From IMG/VR virus record IMGVR_UViG_3300021961_005592, positions 51,210-115,209 of that record: 64,000 nucleotides of DNA; one strand, given 5' to 3'. The position numbers and the translations under genes are program-made. The notes under the pieces are model-generated. The model did no database searches. It was not told the DNA's origin and saw only the letters and a program-made list of their open reading frames with translations. The stretch comes from a virus. This document shows, piece after piece, positions 39,404-60,105 of this stretch (the stretch's first letter is position 1; each line of letters begins with the position of its first letter).

Positions 39404-39685
39404 TTAGTTGTACTTTAAAAGTGGACAAGCTAACATGAAATATGATGCTTCTTTTGGATCTTCAAATCCAATTTGTAAAGCAGTTTCTAGCTTATTAGAT
39501 CCGTTTAATATAACATGCTTTCCAATAGAATATCTACCTTTTAAATTGCAAATAATCCATTTTTCTACAGCACCTACTAGGTTATATGGTAAGCTAATAA
39601 CCAGTTTTTCAAAATGGGAAGGTAGGAATTCTACCTTCCTAATTCCTAGTAATTCTAAAGGCCTTGCTACAATTTCTTTATGCAT
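39404..39685 (-). CDS. Hypothetical phage protein
   Basis: 93 aa, overlaps the VWA gene stop. Confidence 0.65.
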   Translation of the reverse strand: MHKEIVARPLELLGIRKVEFLPSHFEKLVISLPYNLVGAVEKWIICNLKGRYSIGKHVILNGSNKLETALQIGFEDPKEASYFMLACPLLKYN

Positions 39686-40985
39686 CCGCTTCTTCGTAAT
39701 GTGCTGTTACACCAAATGGTGCTTGCAAGTTTTTGTCAGGATGACCGTGAATAATGAAAACAGTTTCACAATAGTTTTCATCACCCCAGCTGTCCCAGGG
39801 ATATCCATCTGTAAACATAATAAATTTTTTGGGCTGGATATCATTTTCTTTCATATAGTTCCAATTGCACATAAAGTCTGTGCCACCACCGCCCATTAAA
39901 TTGTAATCTAACAGGTCGTCATTACCGTTTGTACCGTAGTCTTGTTCATTATAAACTTTGGTATCAAAACACCAAAGTTTAATATTGTAGTCTTTAAACT
40001 CTTCCATGATGCCTTTGATTTCACCTAAGAAGTCTTTTGCTTGATCGTCACCAATAGAACCTGACATGTCCAATCCAATAGCAACATCGATAGTGTCCAT
40101 AAAGTTCATACCAGGAAGAATAGCACCAGTATGCCAACCTTTACGGCTAGGACGACTAAATGTATAGTCATTTTTAACAGTAGATTGTATTTGCTGACGA
40201 ATAATTTGTCGCCAGTTCATTTTAGGTTCAGTAAGTTCTTTTACCATACGAGCAATTTCACCAGGGACATTGCCAGCACCTGCAGATTGAGAAGATGAAA
40301 TCATTGCTTCTTTGATCTCATCTTTAATCTTAGCTATTTCTTCTTTAGAATACTTTGGACGTTTACTTTTTCCATTCTTGGAGTCAGAAGCATCACTAGA
40401 ACTTTCTTCACCGTCTTCACCGTCCCAGTCAAGATGTTCGTCAAGTAGTTCGCCCAATTGTTTAACAGCCTCTTCGCCTTGTTTTTTGGCTTGTTCAAAC
40501 AGATCATCGTACACTTCTTCTGAAGTCCATTTGTCATATTTGAAATCCTGATAGCAGTCAACAATTTTGGGTTTCTCACCAATGCGGTCTCGCACTAGCA
40601 AATTATTAACAATATAGTCTGCGGCAATGTTATGGAGAATTGGAATACGATCTTCTCGACGGGTAAGATGATCAAACACACAATGCAAGATTTCGTGTGC
40701 AATAACAAACTCAATTTCTTTGTTTGACATTGCATGGAAAAATTGAGTATTGAAATACAAATTGCGCCCATCTACAGCCGCAGTAGGCAACCAATCGTCA
40801 GCAGCTTGTATACGCAACCGTGTTGCCATGTTACCAAAAAACGGATGCCGAAGCAGTAATCCAACACGAGCAGTAATAATGCGATCAATTACTTCTACAC
40901 GCATTGATTCCAATTGATCTTCAGTAACATCTGGATTTGGTTGCCAGTGTTTTTTACCAGCTACGCTGTGAATTAGATTGTGCAT
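39678..40985 (-). CDS. Metallopeptidase (HEXXH)-VWA domain protein (DUF2201-like)
   Basis: AHEILH; MIDAS D.SGS; GGGTDF; FTDG. Confidence 0.85.
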   Translation of the reverse strand: MHNLIHSVAGKKHWQPNPDVTEDQLESMRVEVIDRIITARVGLLLRHPFFGNMATRLRIQAADDWLPTAAVDGRNLYFNTQFFHAMSNKEIEFVIAHEILHCVFDHLTRREDRIPILHNIAADYIVNNLLVRDRIGEKPKIVDCYQDFKYDKWTSEEVYDDLFEQAKKQGEEAVKQLGELLDEHLDWDGEDGEESSSDASDSKNGKSKRPKYSKEEIAKIKDEIKEAMISSSQSAGAGNVPGEIARMVKELTEPKMNWRQIIRQQIQSTVKNDYTFSRPSRKGWHTGAILPGMNFMDTIDVAIGLDMSGSIGDDQAKDFLGEIKGIMEEFKDYNIKLWCFDTKVYNEQDYGTNGNDDLLDYNLMGGGGTDFMCNWNYMKENDIQPKKFIMFTDGYPWDSWGDENYCETVFIIHGHPDKNLQAPFGVTAHYEEADA

Positions 40986-41016
40986 TTGGTATTCCTTTTC
41001 TCAGTGCCTATAGTAT

Positions 41017-41044
41017 ATAATAACATATTTACAGTATTTGTCAA
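41017..41044 (-). promoter_or_regulatory. Sigma70-type promoter for the VWA gene
   Basis: TTGACA-N16-TATTAT with TGn extension; TAAATA inside the spacer. Confidence 0.55.
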
Positions 41045-41047
41045 CTA

Positions 41048-41081
41048 TAAAAAGAAAGAGTGGGCTAATTAGCCCACTCTT
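41048..41081 (-). terminator. Rho-independent terminator after the MoxR gene
   Basis: Perfect palindrome AAGAGTGGGCTAATTAGCCCACTCTT (41056-41081) followed by TCTTTTT on the - strand. Confidence 0.8.
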
Positions 41082-41087
41082 AATGGC

Positions 41088-42182
41088 TCACTTGTCTGTT
41101 GAAGCGGCTTTGATATACTTATGATAACGTTCGTGGAACTCATCAAAGCATTCTACTTCGTCTGGATCAATTGGAAGGCTGTATTGGGTAAGGGCAACTT
41201 TAATACCCATTACTACCAGCTCAGTTTCAAAATTGTCCATTGCAAAACGCAAGAAGTTATTAACTTTGGAGTCAAACTTCTTGTCGCCTTTGTCACACGC
41301 TTCTTTCAGTTCGTAGCAGAGCGAAACAGTCAAGGAATACATGGCACTGATTTCTTTAGTTTTTAGCTCTCTTACCTTGCCCTCTAGAATATCTGTCGGG
41401 TTAGGCATGTTAGCGGCTACTTTACGGTGAGCCATAAACTTGACAGCAAGACCTTCACCTACTGATCCGCTAACCAAATCAGTAGTAGTAGTGTCGTCAA
41501 GTTCATCTTCTAATAGCTCGCTTACAAACGACCAAGAACGAGGCGTTGCAAACGAACGACTAGGAGATTTAGGATCAAAGTCGTAGAGGTCTTGTTTTGC
41601 AAATTGCAAGTAGCCTACTACGTCTTTATGTTGTTTGTTATCTACAGCCCACTGGAACCAGTCATCAAATGAAACTGTAAGTTCAATATGGACAAAACGA
41701 TTAGCAAGTGGAGCAGGCATCCGGTATGTAACACCTTTGTCTGCTTCTCGGTTACCAGCAGCAACAATCCTTACGTTTTTAGGAAGTTTATATTGTCCTA
41801 CGCGGCGATTTAGGATTAGTTGATATGCCGCCGCCTGTACAGCAGGAGCCGCAGAGTTCATTTCGTCAAGGAAAAGAACAATTGTATCATACTTTGATGC
41901 AAGTTCTTCATCGGGCAATTCCATTGGAGGAGCCCAAACCATTTTACCTAAAACCGAGTCAAAATATGGAATACCTTTAATATCGGTAGGTTCCCAAAGA
42001 CTTAAACGAATGTCAATGAGTAATGAGTTTGTAAAACTTTCAGTAATTTGTTTTACAATATCTGATTTGCCAATGCCGGGAGGACCCCAAAGAAAAATTG
42101 GACGATTTTTCTGCATTGCATGTTTAATGCTAGTTTTAGCTTTGTTAGGAGTAACAGTCCGGGTTGCATCTGTGATAGCCAT
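41088..42182 (-). CDS. MoxR-like AAA+ ATPase
   Basis: Walker A GPPGIGKS, Walker B LFLDE, AAGN, LANRF, TPRSW. Confidence 0.9.
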   Translation of the reverse strand: MAITDATRTVTPNKAKTSIKHAMQKNRPIFLWGPPGIGKSDIVKQITESFTNSLLIDIRLSLWEPTDIKGIPYFDSVLGKMVWAPPMELPDEELASKYDTIVLFLDEMNSAAPAVQAAAYQLILNRRVGQYKLPKNVRIVAAGNREADKGVTYRMPAPLANRFVHIELTVSFDDWFQWAVDNKQHKDVVGYLQFAKQDLYDFDPKSPSRSFATPRSWSFVSELLEDELDDTTTTDLVSGSVGEGLAVKFMAHRKVAANMPNPTDILEGKVRELKTKEISAMYSLTVSLCYELKEACDKGDKKFDSKVNNFLRFAMDNFETELVVMGIKVALTQYSLPIDPDEVECFDEFHERYHKYIKAASTDK

Positions 42183-45403: not shown

Positions 45404-46276
45404 TTAGGTACCCCAGGCGTTTCCAAAGATGTCGACATGTAGGCGGGGCGTATATCTCCATCCTCGCTCCATTGCGAGGTTTGCAACCCGCTTGGTGTTT
45501 TCGTGGTAGAGTCCGTCTTTCCCACCAACCGGCATAACAAAGACCGTACACTCGATCCCAGCCGCTCTATACTCTGATACTGCTCTTCCAACCTCATCCA
45601 CGTCCACATCATCACTAACCACAAACTTGAGATAAAGGTCGCTATTAGGAATATCGTAGTAAGACCGAACAATGCTAGGCTTAATAGCATCATTCCAAGA
45701 CTCTCCCGAAACGGAAAGTTTCGGTGAACAGGAAAAGGTGAATCGTATAGCTCTCTGACTTTCGAGGTAATCTCGAAACTCTCCTTTGAGCTCTTGCGTA
45801 GAATTTGTCTCAAAAGTGACATTTTTTAAATCTCCCATGCGTGGATGTGTTAATAAATCTTTCCAGAATCTCTGCCATCCTAGCAAAGGTTCGCCACCAG
45901 TAATAACTAAATGGACGTCTTGTCCATTGTCCATTGTCCATTTGCCTTCTGGTGTTAGTGACAACAAATGGTCAATTACTTCTTCTACAGTTCTATCCAT
46001 CATATATTTTTTAAACTCTGGATAGATACTTGCGTAAGTATCACAACCTGTACCAATAATAGGAAGGTCGTTAAATTTTTCAATAGTGTTTAGTTTACCG
46101 CTGTCAAGCAAATCTTTAACTTCTGCATTGTATTTGCCAGTTACAGTACCTCTAGGCAAACCAAAGTTCATACAACGGAAGTTACACCCAAAGGTACGTA
46201 GAAACACACTAGGTGCTCCTACAAACTTGCCTTCGCCTTGCACACTATAAAATGCTTCTGAATATCTTAACTTCAT
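45404..46276 (-). CDS. queE: 7-carboxy-7-deazaguanine synthase (radical SAM)
   Basis: E.FYSVQGEG...G.PSVFLR..GCN..C ... GCDT, ITGGEP, ETN, SPK, PRLH; adjacent to folE. Confidence 0.9.
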   Translation of the reverse strand: MKLRYSEAFYSVQGEGKFVGAPSVFLRTFGCNFRCMNFGLPRGTVTGKYNAEVKDLLDSGKLNTIEKFNDLPIIGTGCDTYASIYPEFKKYMMDRTVEEVIDHLLSLTPEGKWTMDNGQDVHLVITGGEPLLGWQRFWKDLLTHPRMGDLKNVTFETNSTQELKGEFRDYLESQRAIRFTFSCSPKLSVSGESWNDAIKPSIVRSYYDIPNSDLYLKFVVSDDVDVDEVGRAVSEYRAAGIECTVFVMPVGGKDGLYHENTKRVANLAMERGWRYTPRLHVDIFGNAWGT

Positions 46277-46959
46277 CGTGGTGCAAACTCCTGTTGTAAT
46301 TTAATGTTGTCAAAGAACTCTTTCTTTGTACCTGGGTCATCCTTGAACGCACCTTTTAGTACTGTGGTCTGTGTAAGCGAACTATGCGCCATAATGCCGC
46401 GATTCTCACAACAACCATGTGTTGCTTGTACATATACACCTAAATGTTTTGCATTAGTTGCTAGTCGAATCTGCTTTGCAATTTCATTTGCAAGTTCTTC
46501 TTGCAGTGTACCGCGTCTAGCACACCATTGTGCAATACGTGTGTACTTAGATAGACCAATAAGTTTTTCTGCGGCAATAATACCAATGTATGCTACACCT
46601 GTAACAGGCTGGTGATGATGGGAACACATGCTCTTTAGTTCTGAACGAACTACTAGCATACCTTCATAACGTTCATCGCTGTCGTTTGGGAATGCTGTTG
46701 CACTAGGAATAGGATCATAACGTCCTGCCATAATCTCATTAAAGTACATTTTAGCAAGTCGTTTTGCAGTACCTTTAGAGTTTGGATCGTTATGGCGATC
46801 AATAACAAGTGCATCTAGCACATTTTCAAATGCTTCTGTTGCTTCTTTGATTAGTTCTTCTTTGTCGCCCTTTTGTAGGATTTTTGAAATATTGTCGCCA
46901 GCCCAATAACGAATGCCAGCTTCTTCTAGTTTACACCTAATTTGTAATGATTTGCTCAT
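46273..46959 (-). CDS. folE: GTP cyclohydrolase I
   Basis: T.KR.AK, SMCSHH, IGLSK..R, LQE, H.C...RG; ATG 46959 after SD GGAGA. Confidence 0.95.
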   Translation of the reverse strand: MSKSLQIRCKLEEAGIRYWAGDNISKILQKGDKEELIKEATEAFENVLDALVIDRHNDPNSKGTAKRLAKMYFNEIMAGRYDPIPSATAFPNDSDERYEGMLVVRSELKSMCSHHHQPVTGVAYIGIIAAEKLIGLSKYTRIAQWCARRGTLQEELANEIAKQIRLATNAKHLGVYVQATHGCCENRGIMAHSSLTQTTVLKGAFKDDPGTKKEFFDNIKLQQEFAPR

Positions 46960-46966
46960 CAATGTT

Positions 46967-47060: not shown

Positions 47061-47678
47061 TTATTTGCTAATTTTATTTTTCAAATAAGATAGCAACACA
47101 CCGTATGCTGGTAGGAACACTACCAATCCTACGACCATCTTGGTAATGGTCTGGTTAAACGCAACGTCAGCTACCCAAGGTTGCGGATAGAATGCTGTGT
47201 AGAAAAATGCATAAGTGTCAATAAAGTTTGCCGCAATGGTTGAAATTGCTGGTGCTGCCCACCATGCTTCTGTAAATCTGTCACGAATGTGCTGGAATAC
47301 ATAAACATCAAGCATTGTGCCTACGCCGTATGCTACACCACTTGCTGCACCAATACGTAGTGCCTTTTCCATTGGAGCACCACCGCCCCATACAACCAAA
47401 ATACTTGCAACGATTGCAGGAATTACTGCTAACGCAACTACACGTCTGCCGGCTTCCTTTCCTAGCAAGCGAACAGTTAAGTCAGTAGCAACGACTACAA
47501 GAGGAAAAGTAAAAGCTGCTGCCGCTAGTGGAAACTCCCCAAAGAATGGTAAGTTAGCACCTGGAAACAGATTAAACTTAAATTGTACTAGATAATTGCT
47601 AATAGCAATAACTAGCGTATGTAGTATAACAAGATTGCGAATAAGCGTCTTGTCAACTCCCGATAAAATATTAGACAT
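47061..47678 (-). CDS. yhhQ: Queuosine-precursor (preQ0/preQ1) transporter, VUT family
   Basis: I..SNYLVQ, FTFP....TDLTVR..G...R, RI..AS, LDV.VF..R, WW.AP..ST....DT..F; next to folE. Confidence 0.88.
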   Translation of the reverse strand: MSNILSGVDKTLIRNLVILHTLVIAISNYLVQFKFNLFPGANLPFFGEFPLAAAAFTFPLVVVATDLTVRLLGKEAGRRVVALAVIPAIVASILVVWGGGAPMEKALRIGAASGVAYGVGTMLDVYVFQHIRDRFTEAWWAAPAISTIAANFIDTYAFFYTAFYPQPWVADVAFNQTITKMVVGLVVFLPAYGVLLSYLKNKISK

Positions 47679-49230: not shown

Positions 49231-49660
49231 ATTTCTCTCTCAAATACTGTTCGTTCTGTACCCACTCGCCGTTGCGAATGAATCCCCACTCTCTAGTCTT
49301 AGGTCCAGGTATAAAGAGTGTCCAAGTGTCCACACCAGGCTCAAGCTCAATGCGGTGAAGACTGCTAGGACTACAGAATCTAAAGTGTCCAGGCTTTCTC
49401 CAAAACTTACCACTAGGAGTATGCTCCCAATAACCACCACGAAGAATAAGAGTAAAATAAGGCCAAGGGTGATCATGTAAATCATCTAAGTCTCCTTTGT
49501 GGAAGTTGTGTAAGAACACATTGAATGGAAACCATGTACGGTCTTTTAAAAAAAGATAATAGCGAGTTAGGTATGGTTCGTTAAATTCACGGTCCATAAT
49601 AACTCGCTTTCTATCAACTCGTTCTAGAAAGTTTAAAAATTTAGAACGGAATGTCGTCAT
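49214..49660 (-). CDS. Cupin-fold protein
   Basis: LH.F...D...LHDHPW...IL.GGY.E ... HR.EL. Confidence 0.7.
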   Translation of the reverse strand: MTTFRSKFLNFLERVDRKRVIMDREFNEPYLTRYYLFLKDRTWFPFNVFLHNFHKGDLDDLHDHPWPYFTLILRGGYWEHTPSGKFWRKPGHFRFCSPSSLHRIELEPGVDTWTLFIPGPKTREWGFIRNGEWVQNEQYLREKYELEH

Positions 49661-50099
49661 CTAGTTCTCCTGATTTCTTTTTACCGTTGTAATCTTGCTC
49701 AACCATTTTATAAATGGTTTTAAATGTTTCGTATGCTTTTTCTAAACCCGGATACTCTTTACACATTTTTTCTAACTGAGTTATATCAGGCATAGTATTC
49801 TCAAACACTTTTTTCTCTAAGTTTTTATAAAAATTATCTAAATTAATAGTGTCGTTTCCTATGCTAATAGTATAGGAAGAATTGTCAAGTGTTATTGATG
49901 AAATACCACTGCTATCAACCCAATCGGTGTTATAGGTTGTTACTCCGTTAATGCCGTCACTGATAACAAAGGTACTGTCGTTCGTGCCAGTATACATTGT
50001 TTGAGCAGCATTAACTTCTCCGCTCAAATCTATCACAATATCATCGCCACTTAAACTGCTTACGATTATTGTATCTTCATCCTTTTTTGATTGTGTCAT
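49641..50099 (-). CDS. Hypothetical protein ending in SSB-like acidic tip DDDIPF
   Basis: C-terminus ...GELDDDIPF*; EYPGLEKAY helix; ATG 50099. Confidence 0.7.
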   Translation of the reverse strand: MTQSKKDEDTIIVSSLSGDDIVIDLSGEVNAAQTMYTGTNDSTFVISDGINGVTTYNTDWVDSSGISSITLDNSSYTISIGNDTINLDNFYKNLEKKVFENTMPDITQLEKMCKEYPGLEKAYETFKTIYKMVEQDYNGKKKSGELDDDIPF

Positions 50100-51171
50100 A
50101 CAATGCAGTTCCATTAAAAAATTCTTTGTTTAATTTAATACGCTGTTTTTCCAACGATACTATAAAATCATCATAGTTATTCATATACTCGGTAATTTGC
50201 GCCATTAACTCGTTACGGTATTGCCTATAGCTAGAAAAGTCTTCAGTCCACTTACCAGGGTATTTAAATTCTGGCAGCGCCATCTCACCGTAGCTTAGAC
50301 GATCTGGAACCATCGGAATAGCATCTACTAGTACGCCTTCGTACCAACTAATGCCAAGTGTTTCTTGCAGGTTGGCACTAAACACTAACTTAGCTTCTCC
50401 TAGCAAATTGTGATATTCGTTTTTAGAGAGTGTGCGCTCTTGACAAATAACAAACTCATATTGTGGCATATGTTCTGCTAAATCACGAAAAATATCAACT
50501 TGCTTTTCTGGAGCAATACGATGTGGGAAAAGTATAAGATTACGCTTCTCCATACCTTTGTAGCTATCTAAGCTGTTCTTTAGATATTCCATAGGCCATC
50601 CTACTTGCTTAATACGAGGGTCGTTGCCTGTTATAGCGTCAGTCACGTCATCCTCGATCCAAGGATTATCGAGTTCAAATAATGTTCTTACAAACATTTC
50701 AATATGAAACTCGCTGGCAAAAAAGTTATGATCATATGTGTAGAACATGCTTTTTTCAGCATGTCTTACCCAAGGTTTATCGCCAATTAACCTCCCCAAG
50801 AAATCATGAGGATCATAACTGCCAGCATGCCAAAGACCACCGATTCTAATGTCCACACCCAGGAGCTCAGCCATGTAACGAAGCTGAATAACAGTTGGGT
50901 TCCACGCATCCGTATATAGGAAATAATCTCCATTTTTTATTGCGCCTTTACAAAACATTTCACCAATCTGTTCGAGCTGTTTGCTCTTATACACATTGGT
51001 GCCACCGAAATTGAGAAACGCCCCAGGCGTTGTAGCCTGAGGTGTTTCGCCTCCACTGATAACAATGACCTCAGTATTCGTAGCATGACGCAGTTGTTTG
51101 GGTAGATAATCCTTCCACTGTTTAGTGTAACGTGTATCTACTGCTTCAATGTCTACGATATAAATTGTCAT
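50077..51171 (-). CDS. GT-B (GT4-like) glycosyltransferase
   Basis: FPHR.APEK and E-X7-E motif ETLGISWYE. Confidence 0.75.
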   Translation of the reverse strand: MTIYIVDIEAVDTRYTKQWKDYLPKQLRHATNTEVIVISGGETPQATTPGAFLNFGGTNVYKSKQLEQIGEMFCKGAIKNGDYFLYTDAWNPTVIQLRYMAELLGVDIRIGGLWHAGSYDPHDFLGRLIGDKPWVRHAEKSMFYTYDHNFFASEFHIEMFVRTLFELDNPWIEDDVTDAITGNDPRIKQVGWPMEYLKNSLDSYKGMEKRNLILFPHRIAPEKQVDIFRDLAEHMPQYEFVICQERTLSKNEYHNLLGEAKLVFSANLQETLGISWYEGVLVDAIPMVPDRLSYGEMALPEFKYPGKWTEDFSSYRQYRNELMAQITEYMNNYDDFIVSLEKQRIKLNKEFFNGTALYDTIKKG

Positions 51172-51389
51172 CGTGTTACGTTCCTTTTATTAACAAAAGG
51201 TCTTGGTTTAAATCCACCTCGACGTTTAGCACGTATGTAATTACGATACTTCTCATAAGACTGCCAATTAGCGTCCTCTTTATTATAAAGAGCCTTTTCG
51301 TCGAATACCTTTCCTTCAAAGCGGCAATAATCGCGATATTCATCTAGATCATCAAACACTTTGCTGATTACTGGATTGGAGATAGACAT
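51168..51389 (-). CDS. Hypothetical phage protein
   Basis: 73 aa, SD AAGGA. Confidence 0.7.
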   Translation of the reverse strand: MSISNPVISKVFDDLDEYRDYCRFEGKVFDEKALYNKEDANWQSYEKYRNYIRAKRRGGFKPRPFVNKRNVTR

Positions 51390-51404: not shown

Positions 51405-51872
51405 TTAGATATGTTTAGGATAAAAAATTGAACAGCCATTTTCATTATCTTCAGCTACGCTGATCTCTACAAAGCGGCTGGGATACTTTGTAGAAATTTC
51501 TTTATACAAGTCGTCTGCGATCATTTCGCATGACTTGTGATTTAAATTGAGCACTTGACCGTTAGTCGAACCCTGCTCAGAATATAGTCTTTCCATCCAT
51601 CGTTTGAACTGGATGAACTCGATGTCTCTATCATTGTGGAACACTTCGATGCGCACTCGGAAATGGAAAATATGACGATGAGGAACACTAAGGAAGCTTA
51701 CGTCATCCCAATCTCCTGTTGCTAGTTTAGGGTCTTTGTCAGCACCTGGATACATGTGTACACCTTCTTTAGTAAAGGTGACCCAAATACTACGTTGTGC
51801 ATTTTCTAGTTTGTCCATAATTTTATCTTCTTTCATTCTACGTAATATGTAATCGTGGTAGCTTTCGCGCAT
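51405..51872 (-). CDS. queD: QueD/PTPS-like T-fold protein
   Basis: H..P ... PHRH.F...V, SCE.IA, V.ED.EN; sits in the deazaguanine cluster. A DpdL-like decarboxylase role cannot be excluded. Confidence 0.65.
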   Translation of the reverse strand: MRESYHDYILRRMKEDKIMDKLENAQRSIWVTFTKEGVHMYPGADKDPKLATGDWDDVSFLSVPHRHIFHFRVRIEVFHNDRDIEFIQFKRWMERLYSEQGSTNGQVLNLNHKSCEMIADDLYKEISTKYPSRFVEISVAEDNENGCSIFYPKHI

Positions 51873-51879
51873 TGTTTAC

Positions 51880-51908
51880 AGTATACTTTCATTTAAGTAT
51901 TTTGTCAA
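51880..51908 (-). promoter_or_regulatory. Sigma70 promoter giving a probably leaderless QueD-like mRNA
   Basis: TTGACA-N17-TATACT, then 7 nt, then ATG. Confidence 0.7.
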
Positions 51909-52422
51909 GGCCGTACTTTGACCAATCTGTAAATTTTTCATCATCCATTAGATTGTGAAGCCTATGACACCAAACACCTGGGTTGGTTGCATTGAAGTCC
52001 TTGTCATCTAGTTTAATCATGGTGTTATAATTATACTGTTTGATGTAAGGAAGTGGAATACGAATCTGCGGAATAAAGTTATTCTGCTCAATTAGGACAC
52101 TTTCAAGTAATGCTTCTGCATGACTATACGGTAAGTCCAAACTGCACAAGATACCTTTTTTAAGAAAGTACATGATCATGTCGTCCCAGCGGTCCCAATT
52201 TCCAGCGTCTTCTGGAAAGTTAACGCCTGGATGAAAACTGTGATTAGATCCAAAGAAAATATGTTGACACTTTTCGTTCTTATAATGCGCTTCAATTTCT
52301 TCTACAGGCTGTAGTCCAGTTACAAACAATGTTTGCTTGCCAAACGCAGGAGTATGTTCAATTTCTCTGCCTGTGAAGAAAATTACCTGTTCTGCTTCAC
52401 CAGTTTCGTAATCTCGTTTCAT
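51889..52422 (-). CDS. Uncharacterised protein of the deazaguanine cluster
   Basis: 177 aa between the DpdA-like and QueD-like genes. Confidence 0.75.
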   Translation of the reverse strand: MKRDYETGEAEQVIFFTGREIEHTPAFGKQTLFVTGLQPVEEIEAHYKNEKCQHIFFGSNHSFHPGVNFPEDAGNWDRWDDMIMYFLKKGILCSLDLPYSHAEALLESVLIEQNNFIPQIRIPLPYIKQYNYNTMIKLDDKDFNATNPGVWCHRLHNLMDDEKFTDWSKYGLDKILK

Positions 52423-52628
52423 TCTAGATCCAATTGTACAAGTTTAGAGTTTATCCTGTGTATTTCGTCTTTCAAATAAAGTTTCATAGTCTTCATTCTA
52501 CGAACTTCATCTGAAACAGTAACATTATGATAGCGTACTTCTAGTTCGTTGTCAAGCTCTTTATGACGTCGTTCCAATTCTGCTAGGTGGGCACGAAGTT
52601 TATCTGCTTCGTTTTCATAGTTGCTCAT
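52419..52628 (-). CDS. DUF465/YdcH-like coiled-coil protein
   Basis: L...H.ELD ... K..KL.LKDEI; ATG 52628. Confidence 0.65.
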   Translation of the reverse strand: MSNYENEADKLRAHLAELERRHKELDNELEVRYHNVTVSDEVRRMKTMKLYLKDEIHRINSKLVQLDLE

Positions 52629-54144
52629 CCTCAAGTTCCTCCAATTTTGTTTCATCAAAAGTGTCTTCGACTTCTTCTACAGTTTCTTCAACTTCAAAAA
52701 GAGAATCAAAGAACGTACTAGCATTTACAGTCTTTTTACCAACTGCACCTCTAGTACCAGGAATAGCCATGTAAAAACGACTATGTTCATCAACTAATTT
52801 TAATGCCTTGTCACGGTCATCTGTTGCAAATATTTCTTCCACAACGTCTCTAAAAAGAACCCTATCAAACCGTTCTTGTACAAGCATGTTAGGAATTCTT
52901 CCTGCGTCATACTGTCTATTTGCTTCTTGGACTGCATTTATGTGACTCCAAACGTTATGACCCATCTGAATAGCATATGAAAAACTATCCCACGATGTTT
53001 TACCTTCTTTACCAATCTTGTTTAAGTCTCCTGGTGCATATATGCATACATCTGAGACTTTTAGTTGCTCAGTAATTGGACTATCTTCAAAGTTTTTAAA
53101 GATGCCATCCTGTAATACTGCATCACGGAATAAGCGTTGATCTGTTGCATACTTCTTGTTGTCAACGCTTGGAACCATTCGATAGGTCCATTTGCCACGA
53201 TCAGGTGTTTCATTTTGAATGTAGATCTGTCCATTAGCAGTTGCTAAGAACGGACTTGCACAGTCAAATGTAACCATAAAGTTTTCATTATGGTGTTTGC
53301 GAACAGCACGTTGAATGTCCGTAAGCAAACAAGCCCACTCTAGTTTACTTGTACCTAGGAAGTGCATACAGTCCTGTACACCTTTCTCTAACAAGCCGTC
53401 ATAGCGCAGTGCAATGATACGCTTCAGCACCAAGTGAACGTCACACATGTTCTGTCCGCCCATTGCCCACCCGTTGAAGTGAACGCCTGGATACTGCTTT
53501 GGATCAGAATACTTTTTCATACGCTGATACCAATCTTCAGCGTCTGCGTGATTTTCACCCTGTAGAACGTTTAAGAACTTACAGTTGCCATTACGGTTGT
53601 TAATAAACCAATCGTTGTTGATGTAAGTACCTTGAACTGCTTCAGAGTAGGAAGTAATGCCAGTTGCTTTTTGTCCAGCAGGTGAACGAGCGACCCAGGC
53701 AGGAATATCAAGGATCATTCCATAGTCCATATAGGCATCCATCCACGCAAGAACTTGTTCACGTTTCTTTTGTGCCTTAGGACAGTTTGGATCTTTCCAG
53801 TCGCCTTCCCAAACGCCTTTGCCAATCTGGAAGCCGCCTGAGTCTCCTAAGATCCAACTTGTATTCCTGTTACGATTTCGTACCATGTCTTCTTTAGGAC
53901 TGTGCTTATTAATATCAAGCTCTGCGTGTCCTGCAGAATATAAAGTCCAATGATAGTTGAAAAGCCCCTTACTTGGATCTAGGTAATTAAGACTCTCAAC
54001 GTCATTAATAAAGTTTGAAGGAATACGGGCCGGGTCTACATAATTATCGAAACGTTGTTTACCTACATAAGTAGCATAGAAACCACTTAGTGCAGGTAAA
54101 AAGTGTGCGTAATCGTTTTGTGTAGATGTTAGGTCTTTATTCAT
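52615..54144 (-). CDS. dpdA: TGT-fold guanine transglycosylase, probably DNA-directed (DpdA-like)
   Basis: DSGGFQ, LD.P, VLQG, A.GG, HFLG, FDC.SP; lacks the CxCxxC Zn site of bacterial tRNA TGT; que-gene context. Confidence 0.7.
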   Translation of the reverse strand: MNKDLTSTQNDYAHFLPALSGFYATYVGKQRFDNYVDPARIPSNFINDVESLNYLDPSKGLFNYHWTLYSAGHAELDINKHSPKEDMVRNRNRNTSWILGDSGGFQIGKGVWEGDWKDPNCPKAQKKREQVLAWMDAYMDYGMILDIPAWVARSPAGQKATGITSYSEAVQGTYINNDWFINNRNGNCKFLNVLQGENHADAEDWYQRMKKYSDPKQYPGVHFNGWAMGGQNMCDVHLVLKRIIALRYDGLLEKGVQDCMHFLGTSKLEWACLLTDIQRAVRKHHNENFMVTFDCASPFLATANGQIYIQNETPDRGKWTYRMVPSVDNKKYATDQRLFRDAVLQDGIFKNFEDSPITEQLKVSDVCIYAPGDLNKIGKEGKTSWDSFSYAIQMGHNVWSHINAVQEANRQYDAGRIPNMLVQERFDRVLFRDVVEEIFATDDRDKALKLVDEHSRFYMAIPGTRGAVGKKTVNASTFFDSLFEVEETVEEVEDTFDETKLEELEDEQL

Positions 54145-54148
54145 TCAA

Positions 54149-54883
54149 TTATTTGCTCTGTGCAGGTAGAATGTAATCGTACTTTGCCATACCTGAATCA
54201 ACAGTAATCATCATAGCACCTTGATCAGAAATGCTCATTGTTGCATCACCGTCTAGTCCAAGAATAGCTTGAACTTGTGCAACAGGCCAACTCCATGAGT
54301 GCTTAAGAGAACCTGTAACTGCATTCTGGAACACAAACTTACCTGCGTGTGTGCTTGCATCTCCAAAGTAAAATACTAGATCATTAACACCCCCGGTGGT
54401 TTCTGTCTTAACAGTAAAGATAGTTTCTTCGCTGTGTGCAGTACTCATTAACCGCATACGCTGAATTGAAGCCATAGAAGGTTTAACCTGTACGTCCCAT
54501 GAAGCACCTTTGAACTTAACAGTCTTGAGTTTTTCTTCAATGATTGCTTTATTCATAAAACGATAATCGTTTTCAAAGTCGCCCGCAGCGTTTTCAAAGT
54601 GGATATGCGTTGGGATTGTTTCACCATTTCTTTCTGCTTCAACTACTTCAATTTTTGCATTATCTTTGTATTCTGGGTTTTTCAAATGAAGCGCGAGCTT
54701 ATCTAGATTTGGCATACCAAATGTACCACTAGCAATATTGTAGTTACTAGTTGCGTTCATAATTACTGATCGATCCTCTGCCATCGAATCAATAGTTGTA
54801 CCGTTATCTCCGGTAATTTTAACTAGTGATAGAAATCCTAGTGAATGGGTATGTGCAACAATGTCCTGTAGAATGTCTTTCAT
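54149..54883 (-). CDS. Sliding clamp (gp45/PCNA-like)
   Basis: 244 aa, beta-rich, ends ..YDYILPA; located near the DNA polymerase. Confidence 0.65.
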   Translation of the reverse strand: MKDILQDIVAHTHSLGFLSLVKITGDNGTTIDSMAEDRSVIMNATSNYNIASGTFGMPNLDKLALHLKNPEYKDNAKIEVVEAERNGETIPTHIHFENAAGDFENDYRFMNKAIIEEKLKTVKFKGASWDVQVKPSMASIQRMRLMSTAHSEETIFTVKTETTGGVNDLVFYFGDASTHAGKFVFQNAVTGSLKHSWSWPVAQVQAILGLDGDATMSISDQGAMMITVDSGMAKYDYILPAQSK

Positions 54884-55638
54884 TTAATATCTCCTATGTT
54901 ATATTCTATTGTATTGTCAATGCCTTGATTTGTCAAGAATTTTTGTACAGTGTATTTAGGTTTAAAGTCTAAATCTTTTAAAAAACTTATGTCTGCCTGT
55001 GTTACCTTTCTTTCGTGAGGTGTGTGTTCTTTTATACGTAAACCTTTTGGAGCAATGCTAGGGATGTACACACTTGTACCTGTTCCAACATCAACTACTC
55101 CGGTTTTATGTGTGTTAAATGAAAGTAATTGAATAGCATCACATACATCTTCTAAATGTATAAAATCCCTATAGTGAGGTGTTACATATTCTAACGTATT
55201 GTTTAATAATTTGTCAAAAAACATTCCACTACGAGGAACATCGCTGTATGTAGTATGGATTCTTAAACCTAGTGAATTTGTATGCGTTAATGCTAATTGC
55301 TCTAATAAAAACTTTGATGCAGCATACGGATTTAAATATGGTTCGTATGCGCTACTAGAACTTGCATATATAATTCTAATGTCTTTGAAATGCGTAAATA
55401 GTCGCTTACTAGCCTCAACGTTATTAAACCAGTAGCTACTTAAATTTCTAAAACTTTCTCGTACACCACTTTTTCCGGCAAGATGAATAACGAGGTCAAC
55501 TTCATAATCTAAATTACAAGAATTTAAATCTTGATTTTCTTGAATATCAATACCGTAAACTGTATGCTTTTTTTCTTTGAGAATAGAACACAGCCTACTT
55601 CCGATAAATCCTCGATGACCTGTTAGTAGTATACGCAT
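54880..55638 (-). CDS. NAD-dependent nucleotide-sugar epimerase/dehydratase
   Basis: TGHRGFIG, HLAG.SGVR.S, ASSS, YAASK, RDFIH..D; ATG 55638. Confidence 0.85.
   Translation of the reverse strand: MRILLTGHRGFIGSRLCSILKEKKHTVYGIDIQENQDLNSCNLDYEVDLVIHLAGKSGVRESFRNLSSYWFNNVEASKRLFTHFKDIRIIYASSSSAYEPYLNPYAASKFLLEQLALTHTNSLGLRIHTTYSDVPRSGMFFDKLLNNTLEYVTPHYRDFIHLEDVCDAIQLLSFNTHKTGVVDVGTGTSVYIPSIAPKGLRIKEHTPHERKVTQADISFLKDLDFKPKYTVQKFLTNQGIDNTIEYNIGDIK
54908..54936 (-). promoter_or_regulatory. Sigma70 promoter for the clamp-dpdA unit
   Basis: TTGACA-N17-TACAAT, SD AGGAG downstream. Confidence 0.75.
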
Positions 55639-56345
55639 TATTTTGCTATACCTTTTTCTTGATATAATTGTAAGTATTCCATAGTTTTCATCCAACTCGA
55701 TACTTGTGTTGGGTAGTCTACTACTTGCGCTAACGGATAATCATTACCGTCACTGTCCATACGATCCCCAAAGAAATACAAAACATCATTAGGTCCAAAA
55801 TCATTAATAATTTGTCCTTTATCTCTACCTAGAGGAAAAATGTCAATACCAGTCTCGCCACCTACTTTAGCACATAGATCTGGAAACATTTCGTTAAACT
55901 CTTTAGCAATGTGTTCGCGTTCAAAAATACGAGTGTCCCACTTGACATATTCGGCTCGTTGTACTTTAGTAGCACCTCTACCAACAATACTAAAATTAAC
56001 TAAGCCAGGCCGTTTTTCAATGTGTTGACCTGTTCTCAATTTAAAATTACTATCTTCTAATTTGTTTAGTAACCAATGTTCTGCATTATTAGGAATTTCC
56101 CAATCGAGTGTATAAACATTTACACCTTTTTCCCAAACATCGTTTCCGGAACAGTTATAAATTTTAGAAACCGCAAGGCATATGTCAGATCCAACCTGTT
56201 CTAAAGTTTTTGGATAATCAGAACCAGTTATTAAATAAACGTCGTTTCCGTAGCAAAAGTCTAAAAAGTAATCTTTAAACTCGTAGTCGATACTAGCTCT
56301 GCTAGGGGTAAGCGTTCCGTCTACATCAAAAATAAATTTATTCAT
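55638..56345 (-). CDS. HAD-IIB phosphomannomutase-like protein
   Basis: FDVDGTLT, TGSD, IE.R....NFS..GR, GG...IDI.P.G.DK, FFGD....GND. Confidence 0.85.
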   Translation of the reverse strand: MNKFIFDVDGTLTPSRASIDYEFKDYFLDFCYGNDVYLITGSDYPKTLEQVGSDICLAVSKIYNCSGNDVWEKGVNVYTLDWEIPNNAEHWLLNKLEDSNFKLRTGQHIEKRPGLVNFSIVGRGATKVQRAEYVKWDTRIFEREHIAKEFNEMFPDLCAKVGGETGIDIFPLGRDKGQIINDFGPNDVLYFFGDRMDSDGNDYPLAQVVDYPTQVSSWMKTMEYLQLYQEKGIAK

Positions 56346-56517
56346 TTGTAGAAATCATAGCCTTGTGTTGTGCTTTATATTTTTCTGTTTCAACAGTTTT
56401 TACAAGTTCTGAAAAACGATCCGCCACTTCACGATAAAATGTGTTACCAGTTTCACGACCTTTATCATGTAACCAAATTATCATTTCACGGTCTGTTGTT
56501 GGAATATTGCTATTCAT
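56338..56517 (-). CDS. 59-aa hypothetical protein absent from the ORF track
   Basis: MNSNIPTTDREMIIWLHDKGRETGNTFYREVADRFSELV...STNE*; fills the gap exactly, overlaps both neighbours, SD GGAG. Confidence 0.65.
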   Translation of the reverse strand: MNSNIPTTDREMIIWLHDKGRETGNTFYREVADRFSELVKTVETEKYKAQHKAMISTNE

Positions 56518-56926
56518 TTTCTTTCTCCGCTACTCGTTTCCTTAGATCGCTTGAACTAAAGCGATGGTCTCTCTTGTTAAAGTATAAATCTATATCACGT
56601 TTACGACAAATGTCTTTGCCTGTAAAGTCTTTGTCTCTATACTCTTCTCCTAGTATTCTAACATCAATATGATACATTGTCAAGATATCTTCTAGATCTC
56701 GTTCAGTACCATATGGAATTATTTCATCTACATAACTAACTGCTTTGAGTTGTGTGTATCTCTCTACAATAGTTTGAATTGGTGGATTTTTGCTAGGACG
56801 ATCTACACTAGGGTCAACTTGTAGTCCGCATATCAAATAGTCGCATTGTTCTTTTGCTTCACGCAACATCTGTACATGTCCGGCATGCAAGAGATCGAAC
56901 GTAGAGCAAGTGAAACCTACTTTCAA
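56510..56926 (-). CDS. Cytidylyltransferase (TagD/RfaE-like)
   Basis: TFDLLHAGH (HxGH), ER, YVDE, R....SSS. Confidence 0.88.
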   Translation of the reverse strand: MKVGFTCSTFDLLHAGHVQMLREAKEQCDYLICGLQVDPSVDRPSKNPPIQTIVERYTQLKAVSYVDEIIPYGTERDLEDILTMYHIDVRILGEEYRDKDFTGKDICRKRDIDLYFNKRDHRFSSSDLRKRVAEKENE

Positions 56927-57249
56927 TGATTTCTCCTTCCATCAAATACACAAATAAAATAACAACCATCTTTCCCTGAATGTACACGATGGAATACACC
57001 GTCTTTAATTAGTACAGTACTGCCTTCTCTAAATGAGATGATATCACCATCTAGTTCTATGTTGCCGCTACCACGAACAAAGATATAAACTTCTTCTTGT
57101 CCTTCGTGTTTATGGCCTGTTGTACTTTTAAAAGGGCGAAGCTCTGTTGAACTTAGGACGAGATTTGTTAAAACCGTATTGTCTTTAACAGTGTAACGAT
57201 CGTCTTGCTTAACAACCTCTCCACCAATATCCCATCCGTAATTCATCAT
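56923..57249 (-). CDS. Cupin domain protein
   Basis: GH.H...EEVY.F..G.G ... G.FHRV. Confidence 0.8.
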   Translation of the reverse strand: MMNYGWDIGGEVVKQDDRYTVKDNTVLTNLVLSSTELRPFKSTTGHKHEGQEEVYIFVRGSGNIELDGDIISFREGSTVLIKDGVFHRVHSGKDGCYFICVFDGRRNH

Positions 57250-57408: not shown

Positions 57409-60105
57409 TTAGTCTCCAAAGTCAAACAAACTTGAAAATGTGTTGTGTTGTTTTGTATCACCTAGGTCATACTCTAGCACACCAATCAAGTTGTCTAACT
57501 TATTATCAATAATTGTTTCTTCCATTGCTGCATCATCAAATGGAAGTTCTTTAAACCACTCTGGTAAACGGAGTTCATCTGTTGGATAAGCAACACTTGT
57601 ATACCCTATCGGGTTTTGTTTAAGTTTGCAAACAATAACTTTCATACCGTCTACAATCTCTTGCGAATACTTGTCACCGTTCATGCGTTTTAGAGTATTC
57701 CAATTGATAGCAGCTCTTACGTGCCCGGGCATGTTTGCTTTGCCTTGCTTTTGTTCTAGTCGTTGGTAATGACCAATCTTGTTAGCACGTTTGGGAGAGC
57801 CCTTTTCGTAGCCGGGCCGTTCTTTAAACTCTTGACGGAATTTAGTAATACGTTCAATTACTTCTTTTTCTTCCTTACCGGTTAGAACCATTAGCAGAAC
57901 TTCTGACAAAAACTCCTGCATAAACACAGGTGTGTCCGAACGACGCAAGTCCAAACCCATAGCCTTTACTTTTCCTGGCTTACCGTCTGTATCGTTACGG
58001 AAACCTTCCGTATCATATACCAGCGCCGCATAACGCTTCTTGGTAATATACAACCCTGACTCTGCAACAATTTCACGTCCTGCTGCAATTACTTCTGCAC
58101 GAGTTTTTGGACAGTGAAATGCCTTTCCCATAAATTCTTGGAATGTGCTGTTTGCTTCTTCACAAACTTGATCATAAAGTGTGATAACATTTTCTTTAGT
58201 CCAAGGCAAACGTCCTGCGTCAATATCATCTTGTAGTGTAGTATATGCACTAAAATAAACTGAGTCAGTATCACCGTAGATAACTGCTTTACCTACGTGG
58301 TCATATGTGCCTGTAATAATTTCATTTACCTTAGCAGCCATGTGCTTGGCAATTTGTCTACCAGTAAGGGTAGTTGACTGTCCAATACGTTTATCAAAAA
58401 ATCTGCAACCAGGGTTAAGAATAGCACCATACAAACTGTTAAGGTTAATTTTCTTAACCAACTGGCGTTTGTCCCAGAACGCAACCTCTGTAGCATTACC
58501 TGCCTCCTTGGCTTTCTTTAACATCTTTTGTAGATCTTTACGTTCAGCATACCAACGTTTTAGAATACCCGGAATAACGCCTTCAAATTCTGTTGTAAAG
58601 ATTGTGCCGTTTGCACTAAGCATCCATGGCATGTGACTGTCAAAGATGAGTTTATTTATTTCTGCGCCGCTTAGGACGTCAGAGCGACCGTCTTCCCAGT
58701 CAATAGTTATAGCAACGTCTTTACGTTTATCTATAACAGCTTCGTATTCTTCAGAACCAAAACGTCCTTCCCATGAATTTGCAAAAGACATCTTTTTTAG
58801 TGTTGTGTCTTCGTAAATACGTGCGTCAGTTAACTCTTGACGCAGTTGACCTACAATAGTTTCGGGGGCCATGTTTAATGCGCGAATCACAGACGGATAC
58901 AGTGAGTTCAAGTCCATTGAACCAATCCATTTATGAACACCTTTTTTAGGAAAAGCTACATATGCGCCAGCCGCTTGAGTATTTTCATCCTCATTTCGTT
59001 TAGGACGATTAGGAACTTGCAAACCTCGATAGTGTGCTTCGTTAATAATTGCTTGCTCTGTAACCGCAACAGCACCCATAGTCGTTTGTAGCAATACTGT
59101 GTTTGCGTGTGCAAGTTCGTTACTTAGATCAATAAAACGCAGTTTCTTATCTAGTTTATCTAGTAGTGCAACGTCTTGTCTGTTATATTCAATAAATGTC
59201 TCAAAGTCCTTGTTGTATAATTGATCAAGTGTACCTTCGTAAACAGTTTTACGTTCACCCACTTCTAGTTCACCAATAGCATCTAATCGGTATGTATGAC
59301 GTTCTTCATAGGTGTACTTACGATATAATTCAAGACTGTCTAGATGAACACGCCCAACAAGGTCATATGTTTCACTTTGTTTGCCAAATTTTTCGTATTC
59401 TCGTTTTTTAGGCATTTGATCCCAAAGACAAAAACGTCTTGTGTCGTCATTGCTTAGTACACGTTTAACACGGTTAACAGTGTAAGGTATATCATAACCT
59501 TCGCTGTTCCAGCCACTAATAACATCAGCGTCTTCGATTAAATCAAGGAACGCTTGTAACATTTGACGTTCGCCGTTGCCATCTGAGTCGTTAGGGAATA
59601 GAATAACACTATCTCCCCACTTAGCTCGACATATTTCTTTTGCTTGATCAAAAGGTAAGCCTTTTGGTGGAACTGCGACTGTAATAAGAGCATCCATCCA
59701 TTGTAAACATACTGTGATAGCAGTAATTGGCATAAAAGGATCTTCAACAGGAGCAAAACCTCGCTCAGGATCAAAGTCTGTTTCAATATCCCAGAATGCA
59801 ATGTTTAGTTTTGGTGCATCTTGATTAAGATAGTTTTCGCTTAGACATTGAAAGATTGGATTAATATCGCTCTCAAATAACTGCTTATCTCTATTGATAG
59901 CTATTTCTTTTCGAAAGTCTTTTGTACTCTTAGTAACAATACGTGAGAGCGGATCACCATACACGCTCTTGTATTTTCCTTTAAGGTCTTTATAGTAAAA
60001 AGTGTATTTGACAGGGTATTCTGTAAAACGTCTTTTTCCGTCCTTACGTTCTACGACTCTAATAATGTCAGAGTCTCTATCAAAAATTGCATCTACGTAA
60101 CTCAT
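57409..60105 (-). CDS. Family B DNA polymerase (gp43-like) with 3'-5' exonuclease
   Basis: DIET, GWN...YD, YN..D exonuclease motifs; DLNSLYPS, K...NSLYG, YGDTDS, KKRY. Confidence 0.97.
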   Translation of the reverse strand: MSYVDAIFDRDSDIIRVVERKDGKRRFTEYPVKYTFYYKDLKGKYKSVYGDPLSRIVTKSTKDFRKEIAINRDKQLFESDINPIFQCLSENYLNQDAPKLNIAFWDIETDFDPERGFAPVEDPFMPITAITVCLQWMDALITVAVPPKGLPFDQAKEICRAKWGDSVILFPNDSDGNGERQMLQAFLDLIEDADVISGWNSEGYDIPYTVNRVKRVLSNDDTRRFCLWDQMPKKREYEKFGKQSETYDLVGRVHLDSLELYRKYTYEERHTYRLDAIGELEVGERKTVYEGTLDQLYNKDFETFIEYNRQDVALLDKLDKKLRFIDLSNELAHANTVLLQTTMGAVAVTEQAIINEAHYRGLQVPNRPKRNEDENTQAAGAYVAFPKKGVHKWIGSMDLNSLYPSVIRALNMAPETIVGQLRQELTDARIYEDTTLKKMSFANSWEGRFGSEEYEAVIDKRKDVAITIDWEDGRSDVLSGAEINKLIFDSHMPWMLSANGTIFTTEFEGVIPGILKRWYAERKDLQKMLKKAKEAGNATEVAFWDKRQLVKKINLNSLYGAILNPGCRFFDKRIGQSTTLTGRQIAKHMAAKVNEIITGTYDHVGKAVIYGDTDSVYFSAYTTLQDDIDAGRLPWTKENVITLYDQVCEEANSTFQEFMGKAFHCPKTRAEVIAAGREIVAESGLYITKKRYAALVYDTEGFRNDTDGKPGKVKAMGLDLRRSDTPVFMQEFLSEVLLMVLTGKEEKEVIERITKFRQEFKERPGYEKGSPKRANKIGHYQRLEQKQGKANMPGHVRAAINWNTLKRMNGDKYSQEIVDGMKVIVCKLKQNPIGYTSVAYPTDELRLPEWFKELPFDDAAMEETIIDNKLDNLIGVLEYDLGDTKQHNTFSSLFDFGD

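Follow-up and report, generated by a model that had tools for sequence, protein, structure and literature searches.

Phage T4 proteins gp43, gp55, and gp33 share interchangeable hydrophobic-acidic tails that bind the sliding clamp (PMC2988020; PMC3012046). The linker preceding the gp55 epitope is variable (PMC2988020), and the tail of the RB69 polymerase has been crystallised on the clamp (PDB 1b8h; PMC3012046). In the T4 record, gp43 ends in KASLDFLFG and gp55 in PSLDFLYEAND. The DpdA enzymes, which have the fold of tRNA-guanine transglycosylases (TGTs), replace from <0.1% to 100% of the guanine (G) in DNA, depending on the subfamily, and the 2023 paper on these enzymes calls the modification post-replicative and makes no mention of a clamp (PMC10516641). 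Our full-text searches yielded no paper that connects DpdA or a TGT-fold DNA enzyme with a sliding clamp. Here we describe a stretch of viral DNA of 64,000 nucleotides (nt) (positions 51,210 to 115,209 of IMG/VR record IMGVR_UViG_3300021961_005592; hereafter, the window), in which a gene for a putative DpdA-like transglycosylase of 509 amino acids (aa) directly follows a gene for a predicted sliding clamp. The tail of this protein carries a peptide like the one that ends the DNA polymerase of the same phage, and by analogy with the T4 clamp clients, we consider it probable that the transglycosylase docks on the phage clamp through this peptide. The source is an uncultured marine jumbo phage, represented by a 115-kb IMG/VR viral contig that is estimated to be ~32% complete. 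Among cultured phages, it is closest to Sinorhizobium phage Phosso, Vibrio phage 2.275.O, Agrobacterium phage Atu_ph07, the 121Q/Rak2 group, and, as far as the genes of interest are concerned, Pseudomonas phage PA5oct.

The C-terminus of the window polymerase reads ...HNTFSSLFDFGD up to the stop codon, and its last residues are NTFSSLFDFGD, as the original prediction had read them, although at 57412-57444 instead of 57418-57441. The peptide that it had reported in the transglycosylase is also present as STFFDSLFE (52693-52719; the span first given, 52696-52713, covers FFDSLF), and it is followed by the acidic tail that had been thought disordered. The last 44 residues of the transglycosylase, which contain the peptide, are indeed predicted to be disordered. 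In the AlphaFold2 (AF2) model, residues 466-496 have predicted local distance difference test (pLDDT) values <50, except for a short one-turn helix (480-483) on DSLF, and a weak terminal helix spans residues 499-508. Thus, the earlier claim of a peptide shared by both tails stands, with small changes of coordinates. Unlike in T4, the peptide is internal to the transglycosylase tail, as 25 residues, 14 of them Asp or Glu, follow STFFDSLFE. Among the 117 open reading frames (ORFs) of the 115-kb contig, only the polymerase and the transglycosylase have F..LF within the last 45 residues.

Conservation of the motif among homologues had been named beforehand as a point on which the idea could fail. 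The tail motif has the consensus [ST]-F-x-x-L-F followed by Asp or Glu, and it recurs in homologue tails down to ~30% identity and co-varies with the polymerase tail (see below). When full-length representatives were clustered at 50% identity, 55 of 98 contained phi-x-x-[LMIF]-F within the last 70 residues, compared to 22.6 +/- 4.2 of 98 for shuffled tails (maximum 38 in 500 shuffles) and ~8 for equal-sized windows of the core. Moreover, the motif was found beyond the core in 104 of 107 homologues with a gene for a family B DNA polymerase (PolB) or clamp within 10 kb, but in 3 of 52 homologues without one, and 2 of these 3 are on truncated phage contigs. Only residues beyond the core were counted in this comparison, because a conserved core helix (VVEEIF-type) mimics the motif in the last 70 residues. 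Since the counts are not phylogenetically independent, this two-by-two comparison shows a clean association and not many separate events. In 100 unique phage tails, the motif is terminal (≤8 residues after it) in 10, including that of Vibrio phage 2.275.O, and the other 90 continue past LF by an acidic extension of ~31 aa, with ~42% Asp or Glu after the motif. An [FWL]-D-[DE]...L..LE element, which has the form FDETKLEELEDEQL in the window and FADINDEKLTELEQGLDN in PA5oct, is borne by 72 of these 90 extensions.

The tail peptides of polymerase and transglycosylase resemble each other within a phage. The window pair is TFSSLFDF in the polymerase and TFFDSLFE in the transglycosylase, and the PA5oct pair is HFDSLFGW (ending at the stop codon) and SFNSLFDV. 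In Vibrio phage 2.275.O, the two proteins end at their stop codons in NNTDLFDW and NNNDLFGW, respectively, and DLF[DG]W endings occur in no other ORF of this 349-kb genome. Three further types, each named after one locus, pair GFVDDLFD with AVHDIFD (L092), SFDMLFG with SHGMLFE (L088), and NFNKLFDFE with EFNRMFVEV (L148), again with the polymerase first. Of 5000 shuffled pairings, 4 were as similar over the five residues preceding LF as the real pairs from one locus, and 5 of 5000 were so once the tails had been grouped into 20 motif classes. One lineage has switched to [VI][DN][DE][LI]F in both tails, and its clamp is the most divergent, with 27% identity to the window clamp compared to 39% at equal polymerase divergence.

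Peptides of similar appearance were noted in other proteins of these phages. Directly after the transglycosylase gene of Vibrio phage 2.275.O lies NVP2275O_469 (L082:7723-8835), which has no family match and begins MFNELFDFND; this peptide resembles the polymerase tail but sits at the N-terminus. T4 RNase H has been described with such a peptide at its N-terminus. PA5oct EST35_0220 (L282:15939-16541), a 200-aa protein matching phrog_11778 ('DNA polymerase'), ends in EEEAEQEPDPFKLFS (PFKLFS), an acidic run followed by LF. It was set aside as a further clamp client, because its Vibrio phage homologue is without this tail. A PA5oct virion protein ending in VIFGW was considered probably incidental. 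The C-terminus of the QueE-like protein, HI[DS]LFGNAWGT, also fits the motif expression; on the assumption that it belongs to the conserved core of QueE, it was left out of the clamp peptides.

The original prediction further hinged on whether 54149-54883 encodes a clamp fold, and structure comparisons indicate that it does. The AF2 model of the product (residues 1-244) has a pLDDT of 91.7 and shows two tandem clamp domains per protomer. Its best Foldseek matches are all PCNA, with E values down to 4e-11, and it aligns with PCNA at VIA Z 17.9 over 218 residues and with T4 gp45 (6drt_A) at VIA Z 16.4 over 213 of 230 residues, with a root mean square deviation (rmsd) of 3.3. In an unbiased search of 48,161 structure representatives, the top 38 were without exception sliding clamps or processivity factors with a clamp fold, and scores fell sharply after them. 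By sequence, the clamp has no match in Pfam, NCBIfam, PADLOC, or PDB, and PHROGs give only phrog_12062, of unknown function. The clamp alignment (A2) holds 25 homologues from metagenomic and viral contigs, with identity down to 25%.

The clamp gene is followed by the transglycosylase gene on the same strand in 165 of 165 loci, and the spacer is ≤20 nt in 81 of them. In the window, the clamp stop codon TAA (54149-54151) is followed by TTGA and then by the ATG of the transglycosylase, which confirms the reported 4-nt spacer. The TTGACA-N17-TACAAT promoter is also present as described (54936-54908); it lies within the 3' end of the epimerase gene, and the stop codon of that gene (TGA) shares bases with the start codon of the clamp gene (ATGA). 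Of 164 loci, 120 (73%) have a TTGACA-N16-18-TAnnnT site at a distance of 20-29 nt upstream of the clamp start, compared to 3.1% of random 150-nt windows, and no such site was found in any clamp-to-transglycosylase spacer of the related loci. Because of the gene order, the conserved promoter before the clamp gene, and the absence of one in the spacer, co-transcription of the two genes is likely, and the earlier proposal that they share one promoter is supported by this comparison of sequences. Promoter-like sites as a class are not enriched in the window, where 38 were found and 32.7 expected. Five sites with 11 of 12 sigma70 consensus positions lie between 50 and 61 kb, all on the minus (coding) strand (56683, 55217, 54936, 52555, and 51908); promoter-like sites overall are not enriched in this region.

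From its predicted structure, the 509-aa protein is most likely a DpdA-like DNA guanine transglycosylase of the TGT superfamily, in a subfamily outside current sequence models. The AF2 model (pLDDT 91.3) has a TGT barrel across residues 1-465, and the top 50 Foldseek matches are all tRNA-guanine transglycosylases. The model aligns with 2ash at VIA Z 19.2 over 301 residues (rmsd 4.4) and with TGTs overall at Z 16-19, and the values for the bacterial DNA preQ0 insertase DpdA (7ui4) and for Cap10 are 15.5 and 14.3. In a wide structure search, ArcTGT, QTRT2, TGT, DpdA, and Cap10 scored Z 14.3-18.1, whereas generic TIM barrels scored ≤11.8. Three residues, D101 (in DSGGFQ), D146, and D294 (in FDC), are invariant across the 71 diverse homologues from metagenomic and viral contigs that form the transglycosylase alignment (A1; identity down to 24%). 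By their motifs, these residues may be the equivalents of the catalytic Asp residues of TGTs, namely that of DSGGFQ, the one that binds the substrate, and the nucleophile in FDC (Asp102, Asp156, and Asp280 of Z. mobilis TGT).

The sole sequence-level bridge to TGT is an annotated TGT-domain protein of Vibrio phage GR7B, with which the family aligns at an hhalign probability of 98.8%, DSGGFQ against the same motif; this protein itself scores 24.1 bits on PF01702, below the cut-off of 26.3. Between the family and DpdA3 of Cellulophaga phage phiST, the hhalign probability is only 78% over 82 columns. The A1 profile found nothing in the DpdA3 carriers phiST and Campylobacter phage CP220, in a search whose first-look filter may miss remote matches. 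Similarly, phiST DpdA3 as query found nothing in CP220, and the Pfam TGT model found nothing in CP220, phiST, PA5oct, or Vibrio phage 2.275.O. The 509-aa protein has no PHROG match and no PDB sequence match, and the family profile gave only noise against PDB sequences, with no TGT or DpdA. The family is very abundant, with >7,800 proteins per search in marine and freshwater metagenomes. The GR7B protein (vB_VcorM_GR7B, L283:3815-5431) is a more distant TGT-fold phage protein that retains a CxCxxC zinc knuckle. Its tail is NKTLFGKEEEDVGE, followed by a long Lys-rich end, and no PolB was found in the GR7B genome.

A scan of prokaryotic genomes, with one genome per species, returned two kinds of loci. 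The first kind consists of jumbo-phage contigs binned into metagenome-assembled genomes, whose homologues carry the tail and motif, with genes for PolB and the clamp nearby. The second consists of ~60 chromosomal homologues from Alpha- and Betaproteobacteria (Sphingomonadales, Rhizobiales, Rhodobacterales, and Burkholderiales; L178-L246) that have 26-34% identity, stop where the core stops, and lack a neighbouring gene for PolB or a clamp within 10 kb. The median tail length is 49 aa in phage homologues versus 0 aa in bacterial homologues. Thus, the bacterial proteins share the catalytic core of the phage enzyme, some of them with a glycosyltransferase (GT)-like (p364) or DpdL-like (p155) neighbour, but have no tail. 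No PADLOC model matches them, and they may be an undescribed cellular family of TGT-fold proteins that acts in DNA modification or defence. In the two bacterial loci examined (L205:9965-11416 and L196:10001-11365), the neighbours include a DrmD-like SNF2 helicase, GmrSD, HhH-GPD, patatin, and IS21. For the distant representatives P0283 and P0257, the related-locus search found no viral contigs.

The surroundings of the phage gene point to 7-deazaguanine metabolism. Besides genes for FolE, a QueE-like protein, and YhhQ, the window contains genes for a phosphoribosyltransferase and a HIT protein. One gene away from the transglycosylase gene lies a DpdL-like gene, and both are present in most loci; the phiST protein CGPG_00067 was predicted to be DpdL, a 7-carboxy-7-deazaguanine decarboxylase (PMC10516641, Hutinet et al. 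2023). The homologue of Vibrio phage 2.275.O adjoins genes for QueF, YhhQ, QueC, a Gat-like amidohydrolase, and FolE, and that of PA5oct is near QueE. PA5oct DNA is resistant to restriction enzymes whose sites contain G, which indicates a modified G (PMC12191111). QueC did not rise above the cut-off in the 115-kb fragment, and QueF was not found there either; the missing QueC means little, because the fragment is only ~32% complete. A GT-like gene travels with the transglycosylase gene in phages, including PA5oct (gp317, 44% identity), and also occurs beside bacterial transglycosylase homologues in ~9 loci. Together, the GT1-like, DpdL-like, and nucleotide-sugar genes suggest a sugar-decorated 7-deazaguanine. 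With this gene context, we consider it quite likely that the 509-aa protein inserts a 7-deazaguanine into DNA.

The window thus combines a homologue of gp43, a clamp resembling gp45, and another protein that bears the polymerase peptide on a variable disordered linker, and a clamp client is therefore the most economical reading of the transglycosylase. As for the gp45 clients of T4 and RB69, a hydrophobic-acidic peptide on a variable disordered linker is common to the polymerase and a functionally unrelated protein. Unlike the clients named in PMC3012046 and PMC2988020, the client here would be a DNA base-exchange enzyme. Its consensus, [ST]F..LF[DE], also differs from the SLDFL[FY] of T4 clients, and most lineages add an acidic extension with a second conserved helix. 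The enzyme resembles bDpdA and DpdA1-4 (Hutinet 2019 and 2023) in its TGT fold, probably in its conserved Asp residues, and in its gene linkage to FolE, QueE, QueC, and a DpdL-like protein, and it likely serves similarly to protect phage DNA from restriction. Unlike phiST DpdA3 (259 aa, no tail), it has ~500 aa and a clamp-type tail. In eukaryotes, DNMT1 and UNG2 are tethered to PCNA by PCNA-interacting-protein (PIP) boxes. By analogy, the phage protein would be a base-flipping enzyme brought to new DNA by a clamp-binding peptide in a disordered region, but with another fold, an independent origin, no canonical PIP box, and base exchange instead of methylation or excision.

Several points weigh against clamp docking or qualify it. 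The peptide is internal in the window transglycosylase, whereas in T4 clients it is terminal or nearly so. Compared with a canonical PIP box (Qxx[LIM]xx[FY][FY]), STFFDSLFE and NTFSSLFDF lack both the Q and the two aromatic residues after L-x-x, and three phage homologues have a degenerate motif, with VF, NF, or HF. Because the tail may have been gained once, the p-values of the association and of the co-variation overstate the support that they give. T4's own DNA glucosyltransferases have no such tail, so clamp tethering is no general habit of phage DNA-modifying enzymes. Moreover, a shared peptide implies a shared partner, and the choice of the clamp as this partner rests on the homology of the polymerase to those of T4 and RB69. 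With respect to the enzyme, no TGT or DpdA profile matched the 509-aa protein in Pfam (including PF01702, E≤0.01) or in NCBIfam and PADLOC (E≤1), and the TGT zinc knuckle (CxCxxC...H) is absent: CNCPVC of the GR7B protein aligns to ITEQLKVSDVC, and the family consensus has no Cys cluster. Hence, the label 'DpdA-like' of the original prediction is supported by the fold, the invariant Asp residues, and the 7-deazaguanine genes nearby, but not by a sequence model match or the zinc knuckle. We infer the binding of the clamp by the tail peptide and the activity of the enzyme, as well as DNA rather than tRNA as the substrate and the identity of the inserted base.

Of the other explanations, the one that survives best, although unlikely, is that the polymerase and the transglycosylase use their shared peptide to bind one and the same protein that is not the clamp, such as a single-stranded DNA-binding protein (SSB), the helicase/primase, or the clamp loader, which would still leave the enzyme associated with the replisome. 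Co-variation shows only that the two peptides have a partner in common, and the second conserved acidic helix makes more than one interaction of the tail likely. Replisome proteins of T4 use acidic tails for non-clamp contacts too. However, the polymerase is a clear homologue of RB69/T4 gp43, whose equivalent peptide was crystallised on the clamp (1b8h, PMC3012046), the transglycosylase gene follows the clamp gene at every one of the 165 loci, and the clamp diverges most in the lineage in which both peptides change class.

We give a low probability to a protein that is tethered to the clamp but is no 7-deazaguanine insertase, being instead a TGT-fold DNA glycosylase, an enzyme that exchanges another base, or a tRNA enzyme. 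Consistent with this possibility are the lack of a TGT/DpdA sequence model match and of the zinc site, a structural similarity to tRNA TGTs that equals, and to Cap10 that nearly equals, the similarity to bacterial DpdA, the failure to find QueC or QueF in the 115-kb fragment, and the defence-island-like surroundings of the bacterial homologues. On the other hand, three Asp residues that seem to be those typical of TGT chemistry are invariant, and linkage is tight to FolE, QueE-like, YhhQ, and DpdL-like genes, and in Vibrio phage 2.275.O to QueC, QueF, and FolE. The modified G of PA5oct (PMC12191111) also speaks against this possibility, and in a fragment that is ~32% complete, the absence of QueC weighs little.

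It is very unlikely that the tail acts within the enzyme, with a DNA-mimicking acidic segment and an LF anchor that folds onto the DNA groove or mediates oligomerisation, and with a convergent likeness to the polymerase tail. Acidic autoinhibitory tails are common in DNA-binding proteins, the high Asp and Glu content after the motif (~42%) suits such a role, and the low AF2 confidence of the tail leaves any docking site possible. But this explanation leaves unaccounted for the tracking of the same-phage polymerase tail by the five residues before LF, the near-identical NN[TN]DLF[DG]W ends in Vibrio phage 2.275.O, and the same core in tail-less bacterial homologues; in 10 of 100 tails, moreover, the motif is terminal without an acidic extension. 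Finally, a coincidental and functionless likeness, for which speak the shortness of the motif (5-7 residues), the commonness of Phe, Leu, and acidic residues in disordered tails, and the lack of enrichment of promoter-like sites in the window alone, is extremely improbable given the enrichment over shuffled tails and core windows, the conservation to ~30% identity, the co-variation with the polymerase tail, the absence of the motif from the tail-less bacterial clade, and the restriction of F..LF ends to two of 117 contig ORFs.

We therefore favour the docking of the transglycosylase on the clamp. The tail peptide would attach the enzyme to the PCNA-like clamp encoded immediately upstream, and clamps that stay on newly replicated DNA, or travel with it, would bring the enzyme to fresh duplex and let it scan. 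In phage DNA, the enzyme would replace guanine by a derivative of 7-deazaguanine that the FolE, QueE-like, and DpdL-like enzymes encoded nearby would supply, and tethering would help modification to become dense or complete ahead of attack by host nucleases. Base exchange might take place at the replication fork itself or on clamps that have stayed behind; the strictly co-replicative timing of the original prediction seems to us less likely than clamp docking itself. A fuller scheme is conceivable but doubtful as a whole: the clamp would hold the transglycosylase, the second tail helix would hold another component of the fork, and G would be converted to 7-deazaguanine as the DNA emerges, perhaps to be glycosylated later by the GT-like neighbour with the products of the nucleotide-sugar genes.

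Table 1. Features of the clamp-transglycosylase locus and its surroundings, in positions of the window.
Feature	Position	Strand	Evidence or remark
T4/RB69-type family B DNA polymerase, 898 aa	57409-60105	-	Pfam DNA_pol_B 1.2e-36; phrog_262 3.9e-199; RB69 polymerase 6.7e-62
Polymerase C-terminal peptide NTFSSLFDFGD (last 11 codons)	57412-57444	-	counterpart of T4 gp43 clamp-binding tail
Nucleotide-sugar genes (cupin, cytidylyltransferase, phosphomannomutase, epimerase), between polymerase and clamp genes	54880-57249	-	
NDP-sugar epimerase gene	54880-55695	-	
Sigma70-like promoter TTGACA-N17-TACAAT	54908-54936	-	24 nt before clamp ATG
PCNA/gp45-type sliding clamp, 244 aa, two-domain protomer	54149-54883	-	predicted fold
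Transglycosylase gene, 509 aa	52615-54144	-	
TGT-fold DpdA-like catalytic core, residues 1-465	52750-54144	-	predicted fold, invariant Asp, hhalign
Transglycosylase disordered C-terminal tail, residues 466-509 and stop	52615-52749	-	AF2 pLDDT
Candidate clamp-docking peptide S476-TFFDSLF-E484	52693-52719	-	polymerase-like motif
Second conserved tail element, acidic amphipathic helix FDETKLEELEDEQL, residues 496-509	52618-52659	-	AF2 helix 499-508
DUF465 coiled-coil gene	52419-52658	-	overlaps transglycosylase gene 3' end
177-aa protein without family match	51889-52422	-	present with transglycosylase in most loci; PA5oct homologue 42% identity
DpdL-like T-fold protein, 155 aa, QueD paralogue	51405-51872	-	32% identity, E 6e-16, to phiST CGPG_00067
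GT-B/GT1-like glycosyltransferase candidate, 364 aa	50077-51171	-	atlas matches to clusters named glycosyl transferase family 1 (lead only)
YhhQ/Vut_1 transporter	47061-47678	-	Pfam Vut_1 6e-23
FolE	46273-46962	-	Pfam GTP_cyclohydroI 2.3e-38
QueE-like radical SAM	45404-46276	-	Pfam Radical_SAM weak, 0.0034

Three observations concern other genes of the window. The likely ATG of the DUF465 gene, at ~52628, lies within the last codons of the acidic tail of the transglycosylase. A 157-aa protein without family match (49641-50114, minus strand) ends in GELDDDIPF, the tip of the bacterial SSB C-terminal tail. At 39678-42182 (minus strand), a MoxR-like AAA ATPase adjoins a DUF2201 metallopeptidase/VWA-like protein, and this pair is unrelated to the transglycosylase finding.

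Some DpdA enzymes replace a very large part or all of the G in DNA, and clamp docking would offer a concrete mechanism by which such an enzyme could reach newly made DNA and scan it. If clamp docking is true, a base-exchange enzyme joins the clients of sliding clamps, in parallel to the PCNA-tethered DNMT1 and UNG2. If the enzyme is moreover built into the replisome, 7-deazaguanine insertion would be recast from 'post-replicative' to replication-coupled, and near-complete replacement would be explained. The transglycosylases described here form an abundant family that no current model annotates, and with PA5oct and Vibrio phage 2.275.O, two relatives in culture, clamp docking could be put to the test at the bench.

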